Shown: positions 8,175-47,694, numbered from the stretch's first letter. The stretch is 64,000 nucleotides of DNA from an uncultured Clostridia bacterium (GCA_934754495.1 CAKVHW010000001.1:136462-200461), one strand, 5' to 3'. Notes: generated by a model not told the origin, from the letters alone. Translations and numbers: made by a program.

Positions 8175-8440
8175 TTCTTATCTCCTTTTAAATTGTATGG
8201 CACTAAATCAAGACCGCCCTTACTAAGCGGATTGCATCTAACAATTCGTCGTGTGCCCAGTATTATGCCTTTAATAACTCCCCATTCTTTAATGGCCTGT
8301 AGCATGTATGTACTACAACTTGGCTTAAACCTACAGTGGTTTCCGCTAAGTAATGGCGAGATACAGATTTTGTATAAATAAATTAATAAGTTGGCAATCA
8401 GTCTAAAAGGATAACCAACAATATATAGAAATTTATTCAT
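8162..8440 (-). CDS. yidD: Membrane protein insertion efficiency factor YidD
   Basis: 92 aa with ISPLLSGNHCRFKPSCSTYMLQAIKEWG, typical of YidD. Overlaps both rnpA and yidC. Confidence 0.9.
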   Translation of the reverse strand: MNKFLYIVGYPFRLIANLLIYLYKICISPLLSGNHCRFKPSCSTYMLQAIKEWGVIKGIILGTRRIVRCNPLSKGGLDLVPYNLKGDKKWIF

Positions 8441-8777
8441 TAATAATCATACCACTTTTTTTGTAAAGTCCCAACATTTCTGCATAAATTTCATTAAATG
8501 TTTTGTCGGTTATGCTAGGCTTAGCAACAATCACATAGTTAAACTTAGTATTAACCTGTGGCATAATAAGTTTAAATGATTCTCTTAACCTACGCTTAAT
8601 AAGGTTTCGGGTGTGAGCCTTACCAATCTTTTTAGACACACTAAACCCAACCTTATAACTTTTAGCTTTTACAGGAGTGTATAGTAAAACCATGTTGTCT
8701 CCACTTTTTGAAACACCATTTTTATAAATATAGCCAAACATTTTACGTTTAGTAAGTCTAAATTGTTTTTGTAGCAT
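8433..8777 (-). CDS. rnpA: Ribonuclease P protein component
   Basis: 114 aa, basic, with KKIGKAHTRNLIKRRLRE (RNR motif). Lies downstream of rpmH. Confidence 0.9.
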   Translation of the reverse strand: MLQKQFRLTKRKMFGYIYKNGVSKSGDNMVLLYTPVKAKSYKVGFSVSKKIGKAHTRNLIKRRLRESFKLIMPQVNTKFNYVIVAKPSITDKTFNEIYAEMLGLYKKSGMIINE

Positions 8778-8800
8778 AATAAATACCTTTTATTAAAAAT

Positions 8801-8830
8801 AAGTGCCTAACCATTTCTAATTAGACACTT
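8801..8830 (-). terminator. Hairpin between rpmH and rnpA (attenuator or partial terminator)
   Basis: AAGTGCCTAA...TTAGACACTT pairs at 9 of 10 positions. On the minus strand it is followed by a U-rich tract. Confidence 0.45.
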
Positions 8831-8841
8831 TTAAATTTTTA

Positions 8842-8985
8842 TTATTTGTTTGATGTTGCTAGTTTTTTTCTGCCACGGTTTCTTCTTCTTTTAATAACAT
8901 TTCTGCCACCAGTAGTTTTCATTCTTTGTCTAAAACCATGAACTTTAACTCTTTGTTTTTTCTTAGGTTGATAAGTTCTTTTCAT
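8842..8985 (-). CDS. rpmH: 50S ribosomal protein L34
   Basis: Too short for the ORF track. My translation is [47 protein letters not shown], 47 aa. Confidence 0.95.
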
Positions 8986-9053
8986 TTCTGCAATCCTTCC
9001 TTTTTGATATATTAAATAGTAAAAGTACTATTATTTAACTTAAAAGCGTTTTA

Positions 9054-9082
9054 ATTATAATTTATAAAACAACGTAAGTCAA
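9054..9082 (-). promoter_or_regulatory. Consensus sigma-A promoter for rpmH-rnpA
   Basis: On the minus strand: TTGACT (9082-9077), a 17-nt spacer, then TATAAT (9059-9054). Confidence 0.7.
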
Positions 9083-9104
9083 GACATTTTTTATTTTTTT
9101 TAAA

Positions 9105-10205
9105 CTATACAATTCTTACAGGCAATATTAAATATAAAAATTCGTCACTATCATTGCCAGTAATAATACATGGCGCAACACTTGATGAAAAACTTAATTT
9201 TAAAAATTCATCAGTTGTTACTCTTAATGCTTCGGTAAAGTATCTTGCATTAAATGCAATACTTAAGTCGTTACCTTTTAATGAAATGGTGATGTTTTCT
9301 TTAATGTCACCTAATTCACTTTTGCTTGATAACACCATAACACGGTCACTTATATCAAACTTAACAAGGTTGTTTTTATCTATTCTAGATAGTAGTGATG
9401 CTCTCTCTAAAGCATCGGCAAGTTGTTGTTTGTTTAAAATAAGTTCGGTGGTAAAATTGCTAGGAATTATTTGATTGTAATCAATATAATTACCGTCTAA
9501 CAAGCGAGTTGTAATTTTAGTGTTGTCAATATCAACCATTAAGTAGTTTTTTTGAATAAACACCTTAACAGGATTATCATTTTCTTCTAATAGTTTTGAA
9601 ATTTCATTTAAACTACGAGCAGGAACAATAACATTAAATTTACCAGTTGATTTTAAAATTGGTTTTTTAACAACAGCTAATCTATAACCATCTAGAGCAA
9701 TTGATTTTACAAAACCATCTGAAACTTCAAGTTTGCAACCTTTTAGTATTGGTCGTGTATCTTCTTGTGCTACACTAAATATTGACTTATTAATAAGATT
9801 TCTTAGGTCGTTTTGAGTAATTTCAAAATATTCGTTGTAATCAAGTTTTTTTACTTGTGGAAATTCTTGAGGGTTTAAACATTGAATTTTTCCTACACTA
9901 TCGGTGTATTTAATACTAAGCACATTGTTTTCGTTTAGGTTAAGTTCAATTTGTTCATTGCTAAGCTTTTTAATGTATTCATTAAATAGTTTACCAGGAA
10001 CAACTGTTTCACCTTCAAGTTTTACTTCAGCACGAATTGTTTTTTCAATACTAAGTTCTAGGTCGGTTGCTGTTAAAACCAAATTATCTTCTTCTGTAGA
10101 TAGTTTAATTCCTTCTAGTATTGGGTTTGTGGTTTTACTGCTAGTACCTTTAGATACTTTTAATAATGCATCACTAAGTTCTAATCCTTCGCAAACTATT
10201 TTCAT
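9105..10205 (-). CDS. dnaN: DNA polymerase III beta sliding clamp
   Basis: 366 aa with full-length DnaN-like sequence (MKIVCEGLELSDALLKVSKG...LILPVRIV). Confidence 0.95.
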   Translation of the reverse strand: MKIVCEGLELSDALLKVSKGTSSKTTNPILEGIKLSTEEDNLVLTATDLELSIEKTIRAEVKLEGETVVPGKLFNEYIKKLSNEQIELNLNENNVLSIKYTDSVGKIQCLNPQEFPQVKKLDYNEYFEITQNDLRNLINKSIFSVAQEDTRPILKGCKLEVSDGFVKSIALDGYRLAVVKKPILKSTGKFNVIVPARSLNEISKLLEENDNPVKVFIQKNYLMVDIDNTKITTRLLDGNYIDYNQIIPSNFTTELILNKQQLADALERASLLSRIDKNNLVKFDISDRVMVLSSKSELGDIKENITISLKGNDLSIAFNARYFTEALRVTTDEFLKLSFSSSVAPCIITGNDSDEFLYLILPVRIV

Positions 10206-10597
10206 AATACTTCTTCTCCTAATTTGTTATATTATATATTAAATAAAATTTATATTCAATAATATTTTAATCATTTTAAATAGAATTTTAATTTTTGGTT
10301 TATTTGACTTTTATTGGATTTATTTTTTGAGTTTTGTTTTAATTAGTCGAATTCCCCACCAATTTATTTATAAACATAATTAAATAATATTACTCATTAT
10401 ATACAATGTGAATATGTGTACAACTTTAAAAAACACAATATATAGTAAATTAAAATGCCTTTCTTTCGTAAACCATATACTATATGTTGTTTGTTTATAT
10501 GTGCACAACTAGTGTGTAAGTATGTACAACTTACTCACATCTCGTGGTTTACCATGTGTATAACTTTGTTTTTTTTTAATTTTTAACATTGCTTCAA
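10206..10597. other. Candidate oriC sub-region: AT-rich tract plus four same-orientation ATGTGYAYAACT motifs (DnaA-box-like)
   Basis: The dnaA-dnaN intergenic position matches the DUE-bearing half of bipartite Firmicute origins. Motifs lie at 10414-10425, 10499-10510, 10522-10531 and 10554-10565. TGTGTATAA (10555-10563) matches TGTGGATAA at 8 of 9 positions. Confidence 0.55.
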
Positions 10598-32647: not shown

Positions 32648-32724
32648 GCACCGTTAGCTCAGCTGGATAGAGCGTTGGTCTACGGAACCAAAGGTCGAGA
32701 GTTCGAATCCCCCACGGTGCACCA
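32648..32724 (+). tRNA. tRNA-Arg (anticodon ACG), with encoded CCA
   Basis: Folded by hand. Acceptor GCACCGT/ACGGTGC, D stem GCTC/GAGC, anticodon stem TTGGT/ACCAA, loop CTACGGA. The T stem GAGAG/CCCCC has two A.C mismatches. Confidence 0.8.
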
Positions 32725-32734
32725 AAAACGAGGT

Positions 32735-32763
32735 AATCAAGACTTTTTGTCTTGATTTTTTTG
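32735..32763 (+). terminator. Terminator after tRNA-Arg
   Basis: AATCAAGAC-TTTTT-GTCTTGATT followed by a T-run. Confidence 0.8.
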
Positions 32764-32839
32764 TTGAATTTTAAATGGCACAAAATATTGCAGTTGGGCT
32801 TATCGTGTGATAAAATGTATAAAAAGGAGAAATTATTAA

Positions 32840-33475
32840 ATGAATTTTCAACCGATTATAAACTTTGAACCGATTATGCACTATCATACAAGAGATAAGA
32901 AAAAAGGAAATCCGATTGCTTTGAGAGATTTTTTATCTTTAAGAAATGAAGACCCATATTTTTCAGAAAAATTTGTTATTAAGATAATGGAAAACTCAAA
33001 ATTCTTTAATGAGCAACAATTGCAATTAGTTGAAGAGCAAAGTCATAATGAACCTGATATAATCGATGTTTTGAATGAAGACAATAAATACGAAGTTAAA
33101 ACTTTTTGGAATGAGAGTGGTTGTAAACTACTATCTTTAAATAAAAATTTTGGTGATGTTTATAAAGAGTTGTGTATTAATGAAGAATTAGATTATCAGT
33201 TTGCCAATTGGAACAAACCAGATATGTATAATGAAACAAGTAAAAAACTTATAGAAAAAATGAAGAAAAAGCCAATGGATTATATTTTATTGATGGTAAA
33301 TACTTTCTCACTAGACAATAAAAATATATATCATTTAGATAGGTCTATTGATGTAGATGTTTTAAAATGGCAATATGTATTAAATGTATACGATTTTAAC
33401 TATGCTATTTACTTAATAAAACCAACATATTACAACCAGTTTACAATTTATCATATTACAAAAAAACAATATTGA
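32840..33475 (+). CDS. Hypothetical protein with a PD-(D/E)xK nuclease-like motif (paralog A)
   Basis: 211 aa with QSHNEPD(x11)EVK at aa 67-87 (nt 33050-33100). RBS AAGGAG. May be truncated by a frameshift in the A7 tract at 33460-33466. Confidence 0.6.
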   Translation: MNFQPIINFEPIMHYHTRDKKKGNPIALRDFLSLRNEDPYFSEKFVIKIMENSKFFNEQQLQLVEEQSHNEPDIIDVLNEDNKYEVKTFWNESGCKLLSLNKNFGDVYKELCINEELDYQFANWNKPDMYNETSKKLIEKMKKKPMDYILLMVNTFSLDNKNIYHLDRSIDVDVLKWQYVLNVYDFNYAIYLIKPTYYNQFTIYHITKKQY

Positions 33476-33556
33476 AAATGATTTAATAAACTACAATGAC
33501 TTTTTTGAAAAGTATGTAACCATAGAGAAAATTATATTTAGATAAGGAGAAAGTTA

Positions 33557-34276
33557 ATGAATGTAATAAGATTGCTACCACTTGCACTAATAAACAACAA
33601 GCATGTATGTGGAACGAAGATTAACTATGAAAATGATTTGATTGATGTGCTAAATAGTTCTTTTGATTTATTAAGAATAAAGGGGCTTGATAGTTTTTCT
33701 CCGATCACAAGTCAGGCGCATGGAGAATGCGATGCTCGCTCTGGCAACTACGAAATCGATTTTAAACTGTTAGTTCCTACCGAATTCATGAACAACAAGA
33801 AAAAAACCATGCCTGATGTTGACTATTCACATTTATCTGATGGGTTTATTAGTATAAAAAATAACGAAAATAGTTTAAACAAAAAAGCAAAAATAGAAGC
33901 AGATAAATTGTTCTACACTTTTATTACCGCTTTTTTAACAAAAGATAAAGATGATTTATTAAAAATAACAGACAAAAAGAATACATTATTTTCAGCAATA
34001 AAAAACATGCAGGTAAATAAAAATTTATTAATATATATTCCCTGTGAGTTTGAAAATAAAATTGACGCCATTGGGGTAATAAGTAAACTTTTGATGCCAT
34101 TGTTTAACATAAGAGACGATTATGAAAAAGATACTTTTTTAACTTATTTTCAAAATGATTGTTTTGTTGTTCTTTATTATAAAAATGGACAACTATTTAA
34201 AGTTAATAGTGTTAGCAAATACTTTGTTCAACAATTCAATAAATATTATACTCTTGCAAGCAGTATAGAAGAATAA
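33557..34276 (+). CDS. Hypothetical protein, paralog B of the PD-(D/E)xK-like gene
   Basis: 239 aa. QAHGECD(x6)EIDFK (nt 33725-33766) aligns with QSHNEPD...EVK of paralog A. RBS AAGGAG. Confidence 0.6.
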   Translation: MNVIRLLPLALINNKHVCGTKINYENDLIDVLNSSFDLLRIKGLDSFSPITSQAHGECDARSGNYEIDFKLLVPTEFMNNKKKTMPDVDYSHLSDGFISIKNNENSLNKKAKIEADKLFYTFITAFLTKDKDDLLKITDKKNTLFSAIKNMQVNKNLLIYIPCEFENKIDAIGVISKLLMPLFNIRDDYEKDTFLTYFQNDCFVVLYYKNGQLFKVNSVSKYFVQQFNKYYTLASSIEE

Positions 34277-34312
34277 TAAATCAAAATAGCCCCTAAACAA
34301 GAGGCCATTTTT

Positions 34313-34432
34313 TTAATTTGCATACAACAGATTTTCTATTGTGTCAGAGGCTCTTTTGTCGGATTGTTTAGTATAGTGAGAGTAAATATTTAATGTTGTT
34401 TGAGTGTCGCTATGACCAACTCCACCAGCAAC
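34313..34432 (-). pseudogene. Tyrosine recombinase (integrase) C-terminal remnant, 39 codons plus stop
   Basis: My minus-strand translation is VAGGVGHSDTQTTLNIYSHYTKQSDKRASDTIENLLYAN*. It contains the GHS...T...Y.H box with the catalytic Tyr. An in-frame stop lies immediately upstream, so the rest of the gene is missing. Confidence 0.8.
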
Positions 34433-34592
34433 TATTTACTTGTTGCGTTATAGTACTGAAAACACTACCATAAAAATGGAAACTCCATCAACAAAAAATA
34501 TTACATATACATCAAATCTTATAACCTTTAATGGAATGAAAGTTGAAACTGAACACAAAATAACAAGCTTTTAATAAGGATTGAAAACAATT

Positions 34593-34636
34593 AAAAAAAA
34601 GCATATTTTAGGAATTTTCCTAGATATGCTTTTTTT
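34593..34636. terminator. Bidirectional terminator
   Basis: AGCATAT..TAGGAA-TT-TTCCTA..ATATGCT long hairpin flanked by an A-run and a T-run. Confidence 0.75.
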
Positions 34637-34697
34637 GTGTGGGTATAAAAATTCTTATAATTTTTTTTAAATATTATTAATATAATATTAATAATTG

Positions 34698-35933
34698 TTA
34701 CTCGCTATCATCACTTGGTGGTTCTGGCTCGGCTTCTTCATCGTATTTGTCTTCTAGACTATATAAAAGTTTTTCGCCGCTACTGTCTCTTAGGTCGTCA
34801 TCTTCGCTGTCACTGACTTCGCCGTTCTCGTTTCTAACAAGTGGTTTTGCAGATTGGTGTTTTTGTGTCTTCTTTGCAACTTTACTTTTGTTTTCCGAGT
34901 TGTTGTTGGCTGTTGTGTCGCCGTCAGCATTTTCGGTGTCTTCTGTTGTTTCACTTTGTACATTGGCTGGAAGGTTGTCCATTTTAAATACTTTATTGTT
35001 GTTTTTAATTTCTTCAGCAATTCCAAGTATACAACTAATGTCGTCATAAAGATTATCAAAAACATTCACGCTAAGCTCTTTTAGGTTGCTTTTCATTTCA
35101 AATAAATTTCTATCCAGTGCAATATACATTTCGTCTTTGCATAACAACAACCCAAGTTGTCCAGTACGTTTTTTTAGGTTTTTAAGTTTGTTCATCATAG
35201 TTGGGGTCAAAATGCACAAGGCTTCTACTTGGTCATCGGTGCTTACAATAAAGTTCTTGTTAAATTGAATGTCTTCTAGTTTTATTACTTCAAGGTCTTC
35301 TTCGTCATCGTTAATGGCAAGGGTGCACTTAAATTGAAATGGGAATTTTATATAACCAAAAGCGCCTGTAAATATGTCAATAGTCCTTGTTTCTTCTTCG
35401 GTGTAGGTGATTCCATTGGCATCTCTTCTTGTCACGGTTTCGGTTTCTTCTTTTGTTACGTCAAGGTCGCTTATTAAAAATTGTGTGTTAGAGTCTGTTC
35501 CGTCATCGTTTTTAATTGTTATTTTAAATAAATCTTCGCCACCATATGAGTCGTATATATCAAACAAAAAACTTTTTCTAAATAGTTTTTCGTCCATATA
35601 TTTATCTGGTTCGTAAGAGTAGGTGTAGCCGTCAAGCAAATAGTCCATAATGGCTCTAATATGTTTTTCTTTAAAGTTGTCCCACTTAAATCCGCTTATG
35701 GCTGGGATTGTAAAACAAGTTACAAGTATTACAACACCCATAAAAACACCAACAATAATTTTGGATACAGTACTATCTACACATATCACAGCAAAAATTG
35801 CCATTAATATCTCAATTGGAAGTATTGTGGCAAGTAGTATTTTTGTACGTTTTTTGCACTTTAAAAATTTCTTTTTGTCATCACCGGATATTCGTTTTTT
35901 GGCAAAAGCTTTAAATTCTTCTTTTGATACCAT
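34698..35933 (-). CDS. DUF3137-like membrane protein with an acidic C-terminal tail
   Basis: 411 aa with two N-terminal TM helices. Lies immediately downstream of lemA (4-nt gap), a recurrent pairing. The C-terminus is rich in D/E/S. Confidence 0.6.
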   Translation of the reverse strand: MVSKEEFKAFAKKRISGDDKKKFLKCKKRTKILLATILPIEILMAIFAVICVDSTVSKIIVGVFMGVVILVTCFTIPAISGFKWDNFKEKHIRAIMDYLLDGYTYSYEPDKYMDEKLFRKSFLFDIYDSYGGEDLFKITIKNDDGTDSNTQFLISDLDVTKEETETVTRRDANGITYTEEETRTIDIFTGAFGYIKFPFQFKCTLAINDDEEDLEVIKLEDIQFNKNFIVSTDDQVEALCILTPTMMNKLKNLKKRTGQLGLLLCKDEMYIALDRNLFEMKSNLKELSVNVFDNLYDDISCILGIAEEIKNNNKVFKMDNLPANVQSETTEDTENADGDTTANNNSENKSKVAKKTQKHQSAKPLVRNENGEVSDSEDDDLRDSSGEKLLYSLEDKYDEEAEPEPPSDDSE

Positions 35934-44312: not shown

Positions 44313-44400
44313 GGAGAGTTGGCTGAGCGGTCGAAAGCGGCGGTCTTGAAAACCGTTGAAGTGAGAGCTTCCTGGGGTTCGAATCCCTAACTCTCCGCCA
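44313..44400 (+). tRNA. tRNA-Ser (anticodon TGA), long variable arm, encoded CCA
   Basis: Folded by hand. Acceptor GGAGAGT/ACTCTCC, anticodon loop CTTGAAA, long variable arm, T arm TGGGG-TTCGAAT-CCCTA. Confidence 0.9.
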
Positions 44401-44405
44401 TTAGT

Positions 44406-44441
44406 ATCCAGTCTAACATGTTGTTTGGCTGGATTTATTTT
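44406..44441 (+). terminator. tRNA-Ser terminator hairpin
   Basis: ATCCAG(T)C...G(G)CTGGAT followed by TTATTTT. Confidence 0.6.
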
Positions 44442-44460
44442 GATTTTAGAGGTTTGTAAA

Positions 44461-44925
44461 ATGAATATCGAAATTCTTGCTCAATCTATTTTACCATTGT
44501 CTATACATGGTGTAAACCCACGAAAAATTATGGGCGATTATAAATGGAAAAAAATAAAAAAAGAAAAACAAAAAGAAGCAGATCATCATTGTATGTGTTG
44601 CGGAGAATACGTTGAGCACGTTCCAGGTAATTATTTAGAATGTCATGAATTATATGATATTGACCTTGAAAATAGAGAGTTTAGATTTAAAGATGTAGTT
44701 TGTATATGTAAAAAATGTCATCAGTTTATACATTCGGCAAGAACTAAATGCTTAGTGGAAGAGGGTGAAATAACACAAGAATATTTTAATGAAATAATGG
44801 AACGTGGCAATAATTTATTGATGATAAATGGCTTAGAAAAAAAAGACTTATCACAAAAAGAAATAAAAAATCCCAAGTGGGTTTTAATTTATGAGAATAA
44901 ACGTTACAATAATAAGTCGTTTTAG
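44461..44925 (+). CDS. HNH-type zinc-finger nuclease-like protein
   Basis: Start set at MNIEIL (ATG 44461, RBS AGAGG). The track start is TTG. HHCMCCGEYVEH...LECHELYDID...ENREF...CICKKCHQFIH fits the CxxC...H...N...CxxCH pattern. Confidence 0.6.
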   Translation: MNIEILAQSILPLSIHGVNPRKIMGDYKWKKIKKEKQKEADHHCMCCGEYVEHVPGNYLECHELYDIDLENREFRFKDVVCICKKCHQFIHSARTKCLVEEGEITQEYFNEIMERGNNLLMINGLEKKDLSQKEIKNPKWVLIYENKRYNNKSF

Positions 44926-45022
44926 AAAAAACTTACTTCGTAAATTCTAAAATTTTTGGCAACTCTCAAAATCTTACCGCAAAAGAAGTTTGTTCTCACT
45001 TGCAAAACAATCAATAAAACTC

Positions 45023-45054
45023 AAAAAGGAAGAAGTTTAAACTTCTTCCTTTTT
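45023..45054. terminator. Bidirectional terminator
   Basis: Perfect 15-bp stem AAAAAGGAAGAAGTT / AACTTCTTCCTTTTT between convergent genes. Confidence 0.85.
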
Positions 45055-45904
45055 AAGTTAAAAAATAAAACTGATTTATATAATCAAATTTATGTCCTAA
45101 TGTTACAAGTCTTAATTTGCTATTATAATACAATTGTATTTTATCAATATATTTCGGTATTTCAAGAGCTATTAAAGTCATATTTAATCTTTCTTTACCT
45201 TCAGCGTCAATTCCACCTTTTAAATTTCTTTGAATAAATAAGCTATTGTCTTTATTTTTAAATGTGCAGATATAATCTACAAATCTTTTATACTTTACCA
45301 AATCAAAGGTATTTATAAACACCCATTCAATCATTTCGTTTTGTGACATAAAAAATTCATTAAGATAAGGCAATAAATCTATTTCTTCTGGTAACTCATC
45401 AAATATCTCTAATATTTTTCTCTTAGTTATATTAAATTCATCAATCAACTTGGACTTATGCACACAAACTTTCATCTTTTCATTTATATTATTTTGCAAA
45501 GAAATAATAAATGATTTGTGTTGAGATATGTTTCTTAATTCATATAAAAATCTATAACTTAATCTCATATCATAAAAAGTATGTGTTAGTTTAGTGAAAA
45601 ATTTATCACCACATATTTGTTTCAAACCATTTAAAAAAGGTGAAAAGTTTCCTAAAAAAGATTGTATTACATTTTTTAGTTTTGTTGCCAAATTTGAGTT
45701 AATGCGATTATCGTGAACATTCCTTACGCATTCTACAATATCAGCAAAAAGCATTTCATTTTCTTCTGCAATTTGATACAATTTACCCACTCGAATGATT
45801 TCTTCAAAGTCACTATCAAATTCAGGATATAAATTTTTCTCATCTACCAATGTTTTAAGGTTGTATATTCCATCAATTTTCTTTTGTTCAATTAAATTAC
45901 TCAT
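45053..45904 (-). CDS. HEPN-motif protein (Abi-like)
   Basis: YELRNISQHKS gives the Rx4H motif RNISQH at nt 45518-45535. Start set at MSNLIEQ (ATG 45904, RBS GGAGAA). No other recognisable domain. Confidence 0.6.
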   Translation of the reverse strand: MSNLIEQKKIDGIYNLKTLVDEKNLYPEFDSDFEEIIRVGKLYQIAEENEMLFADIVECVRNVHDNRINSNLATKLKNVIQSFLGNFSPFLNGLKQICGDKFFTKLTHTFYDMRLSYRFLYELRNISQHKSFIISLQNNINEKMKVCVHKSKLIDEFNITKRKILEIFDELPEEIDLLPYLNEFFMSQNEMIEWVFINTFDLVKYKRFVDYICTFKNKDNSLFIQRNLKGGIDAEGKERLNMTLIALEIPKYIDKIQLYYNSKLRLVTLGHKFDYINQFYFLT

Positions 45905-46165
45905 ACTTTTCTCCACAACAATTATAGCATATTTGTAATCGAAAATCTATATTTTAAAGTTTTAATATAATATTTATCCTAACCCTCCTATCACCAACAT
46001 ACACTTTTAAGTTAGAATTGGATAGCATTGACTCCGCCAAGTGTGAAATGGCTAGATTTAGCCATTTTTTTGTTTTTTAAAGTAGCGGCAGGACTCATTT
46101 TATTTTGTGCTTTTATAAGCATTGTAATGAGTAAATAAAAATACCTGTTGTGTAAAAGAGTTAAT

Positions 46166-46194
46166 TTGACTTTTTAGTAAATATTTGGTATACT
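46166..46194 (+). promoter_or_regulatory. Near-consensus extended -10 promoter placing the TSS at or near the ATG of the 497-aa gene (leaderless)
   Basis: TTGACT (46166-46171), a 17-nt spacer ending in TGG, then TATACT (46189-46194). The ATG lies at 46201, only 6 nt downstream, with no Shine-Dalgarno sequence. Confidence 0.6.
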
Positions 46195-46200
46195 AATTAT

Positions 46201-47694
46201 ATGGAAATTAAGAAAATTTTAAGTGAAAAAGAGTTTAAAGATTTTGAAGATGCCGTTGTTAAAATAAAATTGGATTGTTTAATAAAAACCGAGAACGACC
46301 CAGACTTTCGCCGAAAAAATATATCAACATATATTGATGTTGACAAAGTTGTGAATGACAACACCTTGTTTAAAAGATTGGCAAACAACTATCACAATGC
46401 AAAAAATTGTTTGGAAAATCTTTACAAAAAACATGAAGATGAATACGTTGATATGTATGAATTTGAAAGAGAACTGTTTAACAATCTTAAAGGTTATGTG
46501 TCAAATCAAGCGGTTTTGGCATCTAAAAATGAATTACCTAAGCGAAAATTAACCACAGAAGAAGCGGTTAAATACGAAGAAGCCCGAAACCTTTACATAC
46601 AGATGATTAGAAGTATTGATAAAGGGCATGCTGACTCGCAATTGATTGCCGAATCGCTAAAAACCCTACCATTGGAAATACTAGCCGACTATGTGGACAA
46701 AGTGGAAAAAGTGGTTGAAGAAAGGTATAACAAACCAAACAACAACAGCCCAAGAATGGCTATTTTGCACGATTATTTATCCACAATCGTTCCATTTTCA
46801 AGTACTTACGGCAACAATCTTGTTACACAAAAAATAGATATAAACACCACACGATTAAAAGGCTCCGACCCCAAATTTGCCTTGATGCCAACACATTTAA
46901 GAACCCTTGCGTTTCTTGAAAACCAACTACTGCTTAGCGACACTGGGCTAGACAAACAAAACATAGGATTTGACGGATACAGATTTTTTAACACAATTAC
47001 AAACTCAACCATTTTAAGTTCTACACTAAAACTTAATTTGACTTTTCTTAGCACAGCGGACATATCAAAACAATCAAACTTTGTTTTGGACGAAGACTTT
47101 GCCGATATGCTTATTTCAATCCACAAAGTTCACCGTAAAGTTACAAACAAAAATGTTATAACAAGCGTGCAGGAGGTTGATGGCGACACAATAATAACAA
47201 CCAAAACTTTGTTTAAGCCTGTTTTTGATGATTTGCCAAAGGCAAGAAAGACTTATGTTCAGCTGTGTATGGGGTTGGGACATTTTTGCAAAGTTAAGGA
47301 ATACAACAAAACAAAAAACACATTTAATATTGAATTGTATTACTTTGCCGACCCAAACAGCACAAACGGCATACAACTTCTACGCTTAGATAAAGTGGCA
47401 GATATGTTTAAGGGCAAACCAGCGAGTCACAACCTTCGTGGTAAAGAAAAAATTGAAACAACCATGCATATACACAAATATAATCTTGTAGATGCTGTTT
47501 TAAAAAACTACCAAAGTCCAGATAGTCTTGGTAAAATGGATATATCGTACAACTTTATCACTGTTTCAAAACCCAATATATATGCGGCAGAAGAACTTTT
47601 TAACAATAAATGTGGAATATATAACAAAGCTCTAAACAACAAAAATAGAAAGTTTTTTGAAAGAAAGCCCCCACTTCCAGACATGGAAAAGTAA
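46201..47694 (+). CDS. Hypothetical protein (497 aa orphan)
   Basis: Long uninterrupted ORF bounded by a strong promoter and a terminator. No motif I can assign. Confidence 0.7.
   Translation: MEIKKILSEKEFKDFEDAVVKIKLDCLIKTENDPDFRRKNISTYIDVDKVVNDNTLFKRLANNYHNAKNCLENLYKKHEDEYVDMYEFERELFNNLKGYVSNQAVLASKNELPKRKLTTEEAVKYEEARNLYIQMIRSIDKGHADSQLIAESLKTLPLEILADYVDKVEKVVEERYNKPNNNSPRMAILHDYLSTIVPFSSTYGNNLVTQKIDINTTRLKGSDPKFALMPTHLRTLAFLENQLLLSDTGLDKQNIGFDGYRFFNTITNSTILSSTLKLNLTFLSTADISKQSNFVLDEDFADMLISIHKVHRKVTNKNVITSVQEVDGDTIITTKTLFKPVFDDLPKARKTYVQLCMGLGHFCKVKEYNKTKNTFNIELYYFADPNSTNGIQLLRLDKVADMFKGKPASHNLRGKEKIETTMHIHKYNLVDAVLKNYQSPDSLGKMDISYNFITVSKPNIYAAEELFNNKCGIYNKALNNKNRKFFERKPPLPDMEK

Follow-up and report, generated by a model that had tools for sequence, protein, structure and literature searches.

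Positions 32,840 to 34,276 of a 64,000-nucleotide (nt) stretch of DNA from an uncultured Clostridia bacterium (GCA_934754495.1 CAKVHW010000001.1:136462-200461; hereafter the window) hold two adjacent genes, A and B, which an earlier sequence-only reading took for the active and the degenerate subunit of a restriction-endonuclease-like protein. Our preferred interpretation, to which we give about an even chance of being correct, is a different one: that A and B are independent one-gene nucleases of the PD-(D/E)xK type, belonging to a new family and carried as accessory anti-phage or anti-plasmid cargo in an eroding island beside a tRNA-Arg gene. It draws on a distant homology between the two proteins, on residues conserved in each family, on predicted structures and on the genes that surround homologues in other genomes. 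The homology, the conservation, the position of the motifs in the modelled secondary structure, the independence of the two genes, their settings and the erosion of the island are observed; nuclease activity, a part in defence and the means of sparing self-DNA are inferred.

The relationship between A and B is invisible to direct comparison, BLASTP finding no similarity between them and hhalign with thin profiles being uninformative (3%). With deeper profiles, hhalign aligned residues 21-211 of A to residues 6-214 of B at 95.8% probability (E 8.2e-9, 179 columns), covering exactly the segments that the sequence-only reading had picked out, at an identity of ∼12%. A and B are ancient homologues, as seen through profiles only. 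The nearest relatives of both are members of their own families in other species (45-58% identity between A and A-type genes; 43-49% between B and B-type genes), far closer than A and B are to one another, from which we conclude that their tandem arrangement reflects juxtaposition rather than local duplication. The description of A and B as tandem paralogous genes thus stands as regards homology, but not if a local duplication is meant.

Both families conserve the residues expected of a PD-(D/E)xK nuclease, including an upstream glutamate. In A the motif is E71-P72-D73-x11-E85-V-K87 (nt 33050-33100, exactly where it had been placed), and the motif residues are E43, Q67, D73, D76, Y84, E85 and K87; in a 10-sequence alignment E43, E85 and K87 are invariant, while conservation reaches 90% or more at Q67, D73, D76 and Y84. 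The A family is rare, with 9 matches in a search of 1.84 billion representative proteins. For B, 52 sequences out of 64 matches were aligned, with identity down to 19%, and E25, N33, E57, D59, Y65, D68, K70, K155, P162 and R186 are invariant among them. The corresponding stretch of B, E57-C58-D59-x6-E66-I-D68-F-K70, also lies exactly where it had been located (nt 33725-33766), but the view that it is deviant does not survive this alignment: D59, D68 and K70 are invariant, whereas E66, previously taken as catalytic, varies. Judged by its conservation, the motif of B is D59-x8-D68-x-K70, which is canonical, and B is not degenerate.

B is a significant member of phrog_4170 of PHROGs v4 (hidden Markov model (HMM) match over residues 5-166, E 4.2e-12), as are all 52 of its aligned homologues (best E 2e-96). 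Some members of phrog_4170, to which neither a function nor a structure has been assigned, lie in prophages; for A the only tie to the family is the hhalign alignment, there being no direct match. Proteins of the combined superfamily are 225-275 amino acids (aa) long.

AlphaFold2 models of A and B have mean predicted local distance difference test scores (pLDDT) of 81.4 and 91.3 and predicted template-modelling scores (pTM) of 0.82 and 0.89 respectively, and their secondary-structure elements follow in the same order. DSSP assigns helices to residues 41-51 and 92-99 of the A model and strands to 61-63, 74-76 and 79-88; in the B model helices span 24-34 and 75-83, with a short strand at ∼48-49 and strands at 60-62 and 65-71. 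The upstream glutamate (E43 in A, E25 in B) falls in a helix, the aspartate (D73, D59) just before a strand, and E85-x-K87 or D68-x-K70 within the next strand. In both models this layout would be the textbook PD-(D/E)xK arrangement, and the placement of the motif fits an alpha-beta-beta-beta core in the order of its secondary-structure elements. The restriction-endonuclease fold proposed for the pair is nevertheless unconfirmed, the conserved E...D...(D/E)xK residues on a modelled alpha-beta-beta-beta element speaking for it and the structure searches described below offering no significant match.

Outside one lineage, A and B do not occur together. Among the loci compared (given L numbers here), A and B adjoin each other only in L007, L008 and L009, sister strains of the same species whose DNA is 92-99% identical to the window across the locus; the search for the pair in other genomes that had been proposed thus returned the window's own lineage and nothing further. 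A is solitary in 5 other species-level contexts (L001, L002 and L020, from a Christensenella-like metagenome-assembled genome and relatives; L019 and L021, from uncultured Clostridia; L034, L035 and L037), and B homologues are solitary in at least 8 (L010-L018, L022-L033 and L042). We found no methyltransferase within ∼5 kb of the pair in the window, as the sequence-only reading had noted, none beside the solitary genes of L001, L010, L034, L035 and L042, and none in most of the other contexts. Thus A and B are probably two independent genes and not a two-part enzyme.

It is the surroundings of the B homologues that point to defence, and to this extent the suggestion of a defence context is upheld. 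Homologue P0029 has AbiTii as a neighbour and type III restriction-modification genes (Mod, Res) around it; P0055 has type I restriction-modification genes and YgjP on one side and GmrSD on the other; P0041 is beside ParE, RES-like and helix-turn-helix (HTH) genes in an element with serine recombinases. A full-length Stk2 kinase gene (PADLOC E 1e-252) begins 13 nt after homologue P0035; a B-family gene has this position in L030 (6001-8293), L031 and L032. Stk2 is described in published accounts (PMC11470126; PMC6532042) as a validated staphylococcal anti-phage, abortive-infection kinase encoded in SCCmec, a staphylococcal cassette chromosome element. After Stk2, the same three loci have two open reading frames (ORFs) without known function, one of them with a weak Endonuclea_NS_2 match. 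The viral contig L024 (7962-10254) repeats this order of B-family gene and kinase, with the kinase split in two, after two serine-recombinase-like (ccrAB-like) genes. In IMG/VR viral contigs (L022, 7953-8723; L025, 5687-6457; L027, 7974-8741), B homologues are extra genes in phage structural modules: one lies between a putative tail-chaperone gene and the tape-measure gene, and another, on the opposite strand, between putative portal and large-terminase genes. These phage genes, and the serine-recombinase-like genes of L024, were named from ORF order, size and N-terminal sequence or motifs, without Pfam. The superfamily as a whole is found in human-gut Clostridia, Lactococcus, a staphylococcal SCCmec-type Stk2 locus and prophages. 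Taken together, the neighbourhoods of the B homologues suggest a role in defence.

In the window itself, where translation table 11 suits the long ORFs found throughout, the locus is laid out as follows:

32648-32724, plus strand: tRNA-Arg(ACG), the anchor of the island (ARAGORN)
32735-32757, plus strand: terminator-like hairpin with a T-run, 3' of the tRNA (hairpin scan)
32788-32816, plus strand: candidate A-B promoter, inferred by eye: TTGCAG, 17 nt, extended -10 TGATAAAAT (32808-32816)
32840-33545, plus strand: gene A (A family), 234 aa with one A taken out of the A7 run (ORF, homologues, sister alleles)
33460-33466, plus strand: A7 homopolymer with a +1 frameshift (A6 in L007, L008 and L009)
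33557-34276, plus strand: gene B, 239 aa, member of phrog_4170 (ORF, HMM)
34283-34311, no strand assigned: terminator-like hairpin right after B (the hairpin scan places it on the minus strand; a T-run is also present on the plus side)
34313-34435, minus strand: remnant of a tyrosine recombinase (integrase), its last 40 codons, IVAGGVGHSDTQTTLNIYSHYTKQSDKRASDTIENLLYAN and a stop (translation, tblastn)
34440-34574, plus strand: stump of a 207-aa ORF that is whole in L008 (comparison with L008)

The start of ORF A and the end of ORF B are as the sequence-only reading gave them, and the pair does lie between a tRNA and an integrase remnant. The remnant, whose translation includes GHSDTQTTLNIYSHY, matched 247 phage records by tblastn (best E 2e-6), and among the ten records listed those that are annotated say integrase or tyrosine recombinase. 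Gene A starts 115 nt after the end of the tRNA, and the two terminator-like hairpins flank A-B. The flanking genes encode a U32 peptidase, a nucleoside hydrolase, DUF3137 and LemA proteins and a leucine-rich repeat (LRR) surface protein. The pair had been said to have its own promoter and ribosome-binding sites. Both genes have an AGGAG ribosome-binding site (32825-32829 for A, 33545-33549 for B), but the promoter is without statistical support: the region has 15 promoter-like matches against 16.8 in shuffled sequences, no excess, and the scan did not list the candidate. The extended -10 TGATAAAAT is a plausible promoter for A-B, judged by eye.

As sequenced, ORF A encodes 211 aa and stops at 33475. 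The sister strains L007-L009 have A6 where the window has A7, and their ORF extends to window position 33545; removal of one A from the window likewise gives a 234-aa protein ending at 33545, with its stop overlapping the ribosome-binding site of B. All A homologues are 225-239 aa long and share a conserved C-terminus (I211, F221, F222, K224, Y225) that the 211-aa ORF lacks. Translating the TGA at the end of ORF A with genetic code 4 was considered, but the long table-11 ORFs and the A6 alleles rule this out in favour of a frameshift. Between strains, the ratio of nonsynonymous to synonymous divergence (pN/pS) of gene A is 0.12-0.19, so that A is under purifying selection. Since A is a selected gene, the frameshift must be either recent or a homopolymer sequencing error; the A7 run is thus either a real inactivating mutation or an artefact, and gene A should in any case be marked as frameshifted in the window.

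Among these near-identical strains, in-frame indels also distinguish gene A. The window and L007 share an 18-nt tandem duplication where A begins (32840-32875, NFQPII/NFEPIM), and L007-L009, but not the window, have a 33-nt duplication (MKKKSMDYILL/MKKKPMDYILL; L008 ∼1400-1440).

Comparison with the sister strains shows that the island is decaying, as had been proposed: its integrase is down to 40 codons and ORFs downstream have been deleted. In L008 the integrase remnant is followed by ORFs of 207 aa and 192 aa (L008 2598-4454), neither with a match in Pfam. The window has lost most of the former, leaving a 44-codon stump, and all of the latter (34440-34708), while L007 (1777-3160) is intermediate, keeping the 192-aa ORF but not the 207-aa ORF. 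With deletion junctions relative to L008 and L007 near 34551/34589 and 34666/34708, the ORFs beyond the integrase remnant were removed from the window by nested deletions. The claim that A and B are the only cargo is therefore correct for the window strain, but not for L008 and L007, which carry one or two more ORFs beyond the remnant. The island has a GC content of 24-29%, compared with ∼31-37% in its flanks and 31% in the window overall. No exact repeat of the tRNA 3' end of at least 10 nt, such as an attachment-site (att) direct repeat would provide, was found within 9 kb. A search for an empty-site allele by way of identical LemA and nucleoside-hydrolase proteins found none, the contigs recovered ending at the island. 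In independent metagenome assemblies (L038, L039, L040) contigs stop at the tRNA-Arg gene or, on the opposite side, shortly after DUF3137, which suggests strain heterogeneity here.

The two genes also differ in their history within the species. Identity among sister strains is 92-96% over the tRNA flank and the 5' part of A (32666-33286) and 99.2% over the 3' part of A and B (33259-34551); synonymous divergence (pS) is 0.11-0.13 in A and 0 in B, where there is no synonymous change. So abrupt a change of divergence inside A implies a recombination breakpoint within the gene, near 33286.

A further regularity concerns where A-type genes are found. A homologues lie 71-522 nt downstream, on the same strand, of tRNA-Arg(ACG), tRNA-Leu(CAG), tRNA-Val(TAC), tRNA-Ser(TGA) or transfer-messenger RNA (tmRNA) genes; the gaps are 115 nt in the window (32648-32840), 522 nt in L001 (9391-10001), 108 nt in L034 (2613-2797), 71 nt in L035 (6805-7227) and 76 nt in L037 (2113-2277). 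By a rough estimate ∼1% of positions would lie so by chance, and 5 of the 6 A contexts do, far above that expectation. The exception is L021, where the tRNA-Arg(ACG) is 2.2 kb away with an ATPase fragment in between. The A loci beside tRNA or tmRNA genes have no att repeat and no integrase, save for the 40-codon remnant of the window, and no flanking DNA is conserved among A loci, except that L019 is nearly identical to L021. The closest relatives of B also adjoin tRNA 3' ends (248 nt from tRNA-Leu(CAG) in one case, 52 nt from tRNA-Arg(TCG) in another), while the more distant B homologues are away from tRNA genes, in islands of restriction-modification and abortive-infection (Abi) genes or in prophage structural modules.

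Several details of these loci deserve a separate record. Between tRNA-Leu and A in L001 (9479-10000) are two copies of a ∼190-nt GC-rich unit (gaccgcaagcaaagagagacgcaagcgc...), absent from other A loci, which account for the longer 522-nt gap. The stretch of L021 from the A homologue to tRNA-Arg(ACG) (8376-10346) holds the C-terminal half of an AAA_21/AAA_15 ATPase, a 185-aa ORF and a 318-aa ORF, and looks like a degraded ATPase-type defence system. The window has a second tRNA-linked islet at 44313-47694, in which a 166-aa Cys/His-rich ORF (44425-44925, CxxC...H...CxxCH) begins 25 nt after tRNA-Ser(TGA), followed by a 287-aa ORF on the minus strand and a 497-aa ORF. None of the three has a match in Pfam or PADLOC, and an identification of the 166-aa ORF as HNH was dropped, the likeness being by eye only and Pfam giving it no support.

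There are several other possible explanations for the pair. The one suggested by the sequence-only reading is that A, as the active partner, and B, as the degenerate one, form an obligate heterodimeric restriction-fold nuclease. In its favour, the genes are neighbours, the ribosome-binding site of B overlaps the stop codon of intact A, with a spacer of 10-11 nt, and homologous subunits, which A and B would be, are a feature of some heterodimeric nucleases. An obligate heterodimer would, however, need conserved co-occurrence, and what we find is pairing in one lineage, with every other A and B homologue solitary, which makes such a complex unlikely. B keeps its catalytic-type residues invariant, and the damaged gene in the window is A, the supposedly active partner, while B is intact; the two genes also have different histories within the species. 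We therefore regard this explanation as highly improbable, and the pair should not be annotated as a heterodimer. Equally dependent on co-occurrence is the idea of a toxin-antitoxin or addiction pair, with a toxic protein kept in check by its partner. Being a compact operon of two genes on a mobile element, A-B would suit this idea, and a ParE toxin gene adjoins one B homologue, but the two proteins are homologous and alike in size, each is solitary in other genomes, where a toxin without its antitoxin would not be tolerable, and B can persist where A is lost by frameshift. There is, we think, hardly any prospect that this is the answer.

Turning to readings that accept the independence of the two genes, a number of results weigh against our own. 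Foldseek against the PDB gave nothing at E ≤0.001, the best matches having E 0.1 (A) and 0.08 (B) and all having template-modelling (TM) scores below 0.35; known PD-(D/E)xK proteins (YaeQ, SfsA, ThaI) are scattered among these noise-level matches at E 0.2-0.7 and TM <0.25. A search of the BFVD viral predicted structures, made with B only, found no significant match. Neither A nor B, as single proteins or as whole alignments, matches anything in Pfam, NCBIfam or PADLOC, and a four-profile HMM search of PDB sequences yielded only a chance match to XPB (E 0.9). The motif is short and its interpretation rests on secondary-structure order; the defence role is built on neighbouring genes only; the only A context with anything defence-like is the ATPase fragment of L021; and IMG/VR viral contigs yielded no member of the A family. 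One alternative is a non-nuclease with a new fold, serving in phage sensing, nucleotide processing or regulation, in which the E/D/K pattern would reflect other chemistry or coincidence. Such a protein would fit confident models without significant structural neighbours, the want of a profile tie to any PD-(D/E)xK Pfam family, and the further invariant residues without a known role (N33, Y65, K155, P162, R186). Nevertheless, the spacing of E...D...(D/E)xK and its secondary-structure placement match the textbook core in both branches, and PD-(D/E)xK families often elude automated structure searches. We consider a non-nuclease unlikely, though by no means negligible. A last possibility is that these are site-specific endonucleases with a mobility or selfish function, the A family especially, behaving in a homing-like way beside tRNA and tmRNA genes or serving the integration or excision of islands. 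The position of A homologues shortly after five different tRNA or tmRNA genes, their lack of an accompanying integrase or att repeat, and the close B homologues abutting the 3' ends of tRNA-Leu and tRNA-Arg(TCG) are in keeping with this, as is a PADLOC 'homing endonuclease' match (E 0.02) that is itself at noise level. Yet tyrosine integrases classically target tRNA and tmRNA 3' ends, and the window holds an integrase remnant; the loci have no flanking DNA in common, and distant B homologues are not beside tRNA genes. On balance we find a mobility function distinctly improbable. A more daring version of it, that the superfamily is a structurally new endonuclease of which the A branch and the closest B relatives are integrase-independent selfish genes homing to tRNA and tmRNA 3' flanks, would be a long shot; homing might perhaps proceed by recognition of shared T-arm and acceptor DNA, and these genes would then correspond, in cells, to the free-standing homing endonucleases of phage tRNA clusters.

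A weak Foldseek match common to both models is to the unrelated central domains of acetyl-CoA carboxylase, which fits the two models resembling each other. The only related profile matches, both at noise level, are a single-member match to RE_HaeIII (E 0.05) and one to REase_II (E 0.015). No system component in PADLOC-DB v2 was matched, SduA and HamA included, so that the PADLOC search which the sequence-only reading had called for did not return a matching system. tblastn with B, P0041 and P0062 against INPHARED phages, and with P0041 against PLSDB plasmids, gave no match, and the names given to the homologues in their sources are all 'hypothetical' or missing. The description of the family as unrecognised therefore holds, B's membership of phrog_4170 being the only assignment for either protein.

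With the PD-(D/E)xK superfamily, from minimal nucleases of the Hjc type to type II enzymes, A and B share the pattern E(helix)-x30-34-D-x9-12-(D/E)xK on an alpha-beta-beta-beta element; the motif spacing of archaeal Hjc is similar. They differ in having no profile or Foldseek link to any member and no cognate methyltransferase, the adjacent one of type II restriction-modification systems being absent, and in carrying an additional helical insertion and, at the C-terminus, an alpha-beta3-alpha part. Also comparable are Shedu SduA (DUF4263) and the type IV enzymes Mrr and MspJI, which, like A and B, are single genes with predicted PD-(D/E)xK chemistry, without a methyltransferase, in defence islands or on mobile elements. 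Hachiman HamA shows the same likeness but works with a helicase. In contrast to these single-gene nuclease defences, A and B have no recognisable sensor or reader domain, and their activity is predicted only. With the Stk2 locus of staphylococcal SCCmec the link is the B-family gene directly upstream of Stk2 in L030-L032, whereas the window has no kinase; the original Stk2 work reportedly did not require the upstream gene. With the tRNA islands of tyrosine recombinases the window shares a position on the 3' side of a tRNA, an integrase remnant, strain-variable content, nested deletions and a lower GC content, but no att repeats were found, the integrase is at the end distal to the tRNA and reduced to 40 codons, and the islets of other species consist of one gene each.

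Returning to our preferred interpretation, A and B would be anciently diverged members of one small superfamily, the B branch being phrog_4170 and the A branch a rare offshoot. The glutamate in the N-terminal helix, the aspartate at the start of a beta-strand and the (D/E)-x-K in the next strand would form the arrangement of a Mg2+-dependent PD-(D/E)xK endonuclease, and each gene may be a self-sufficient accessory module, its product presumably a homo-oligomer, found on integrative elements, in prophages and in defence islands. Most probably such enzymes would cleave the nucleic acid of invading phages or plasmids, with no methyltransferase as partner. If so, the lack of that partner suggests that self-DNA would be spared either because cleavage depends on modification or structure, as with type IV restriction enzymes, or because the enzyme is active only during infection. 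In the window's lineage A and B would have been brought together in an island 3' of tRNA-Arg(ACG), forming a single operon while A was intact, and the island would then have decayed: the integrase shrank to its last codons, the downstream ORFs were deleted, and A acquired its +1 frameshift in the window strain.

Stand-alone restriction-fold nucleases from defence islands are a very large and familiar kind, among which such candidates are frequent; the present one would be a new family that lacks annotation. Should both the nuclease and the defence parts of our interpretation be true, it would add a family of small single-gene anti-phage or anti-plasmid effectors that is absent from Pfam, NCBIfam and PADLOC. 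The member that shares an operon with the validated Stk2 system offers a ready experimental entry point, and the confident models without structural neighbours make these proteins useful targets for structure determination. The placement of A-type genes right after five different tRNA and tmRNA genes, without integrases, is a striking regularity that could help to explain the origin of minimal islets at tRNA hot spots.

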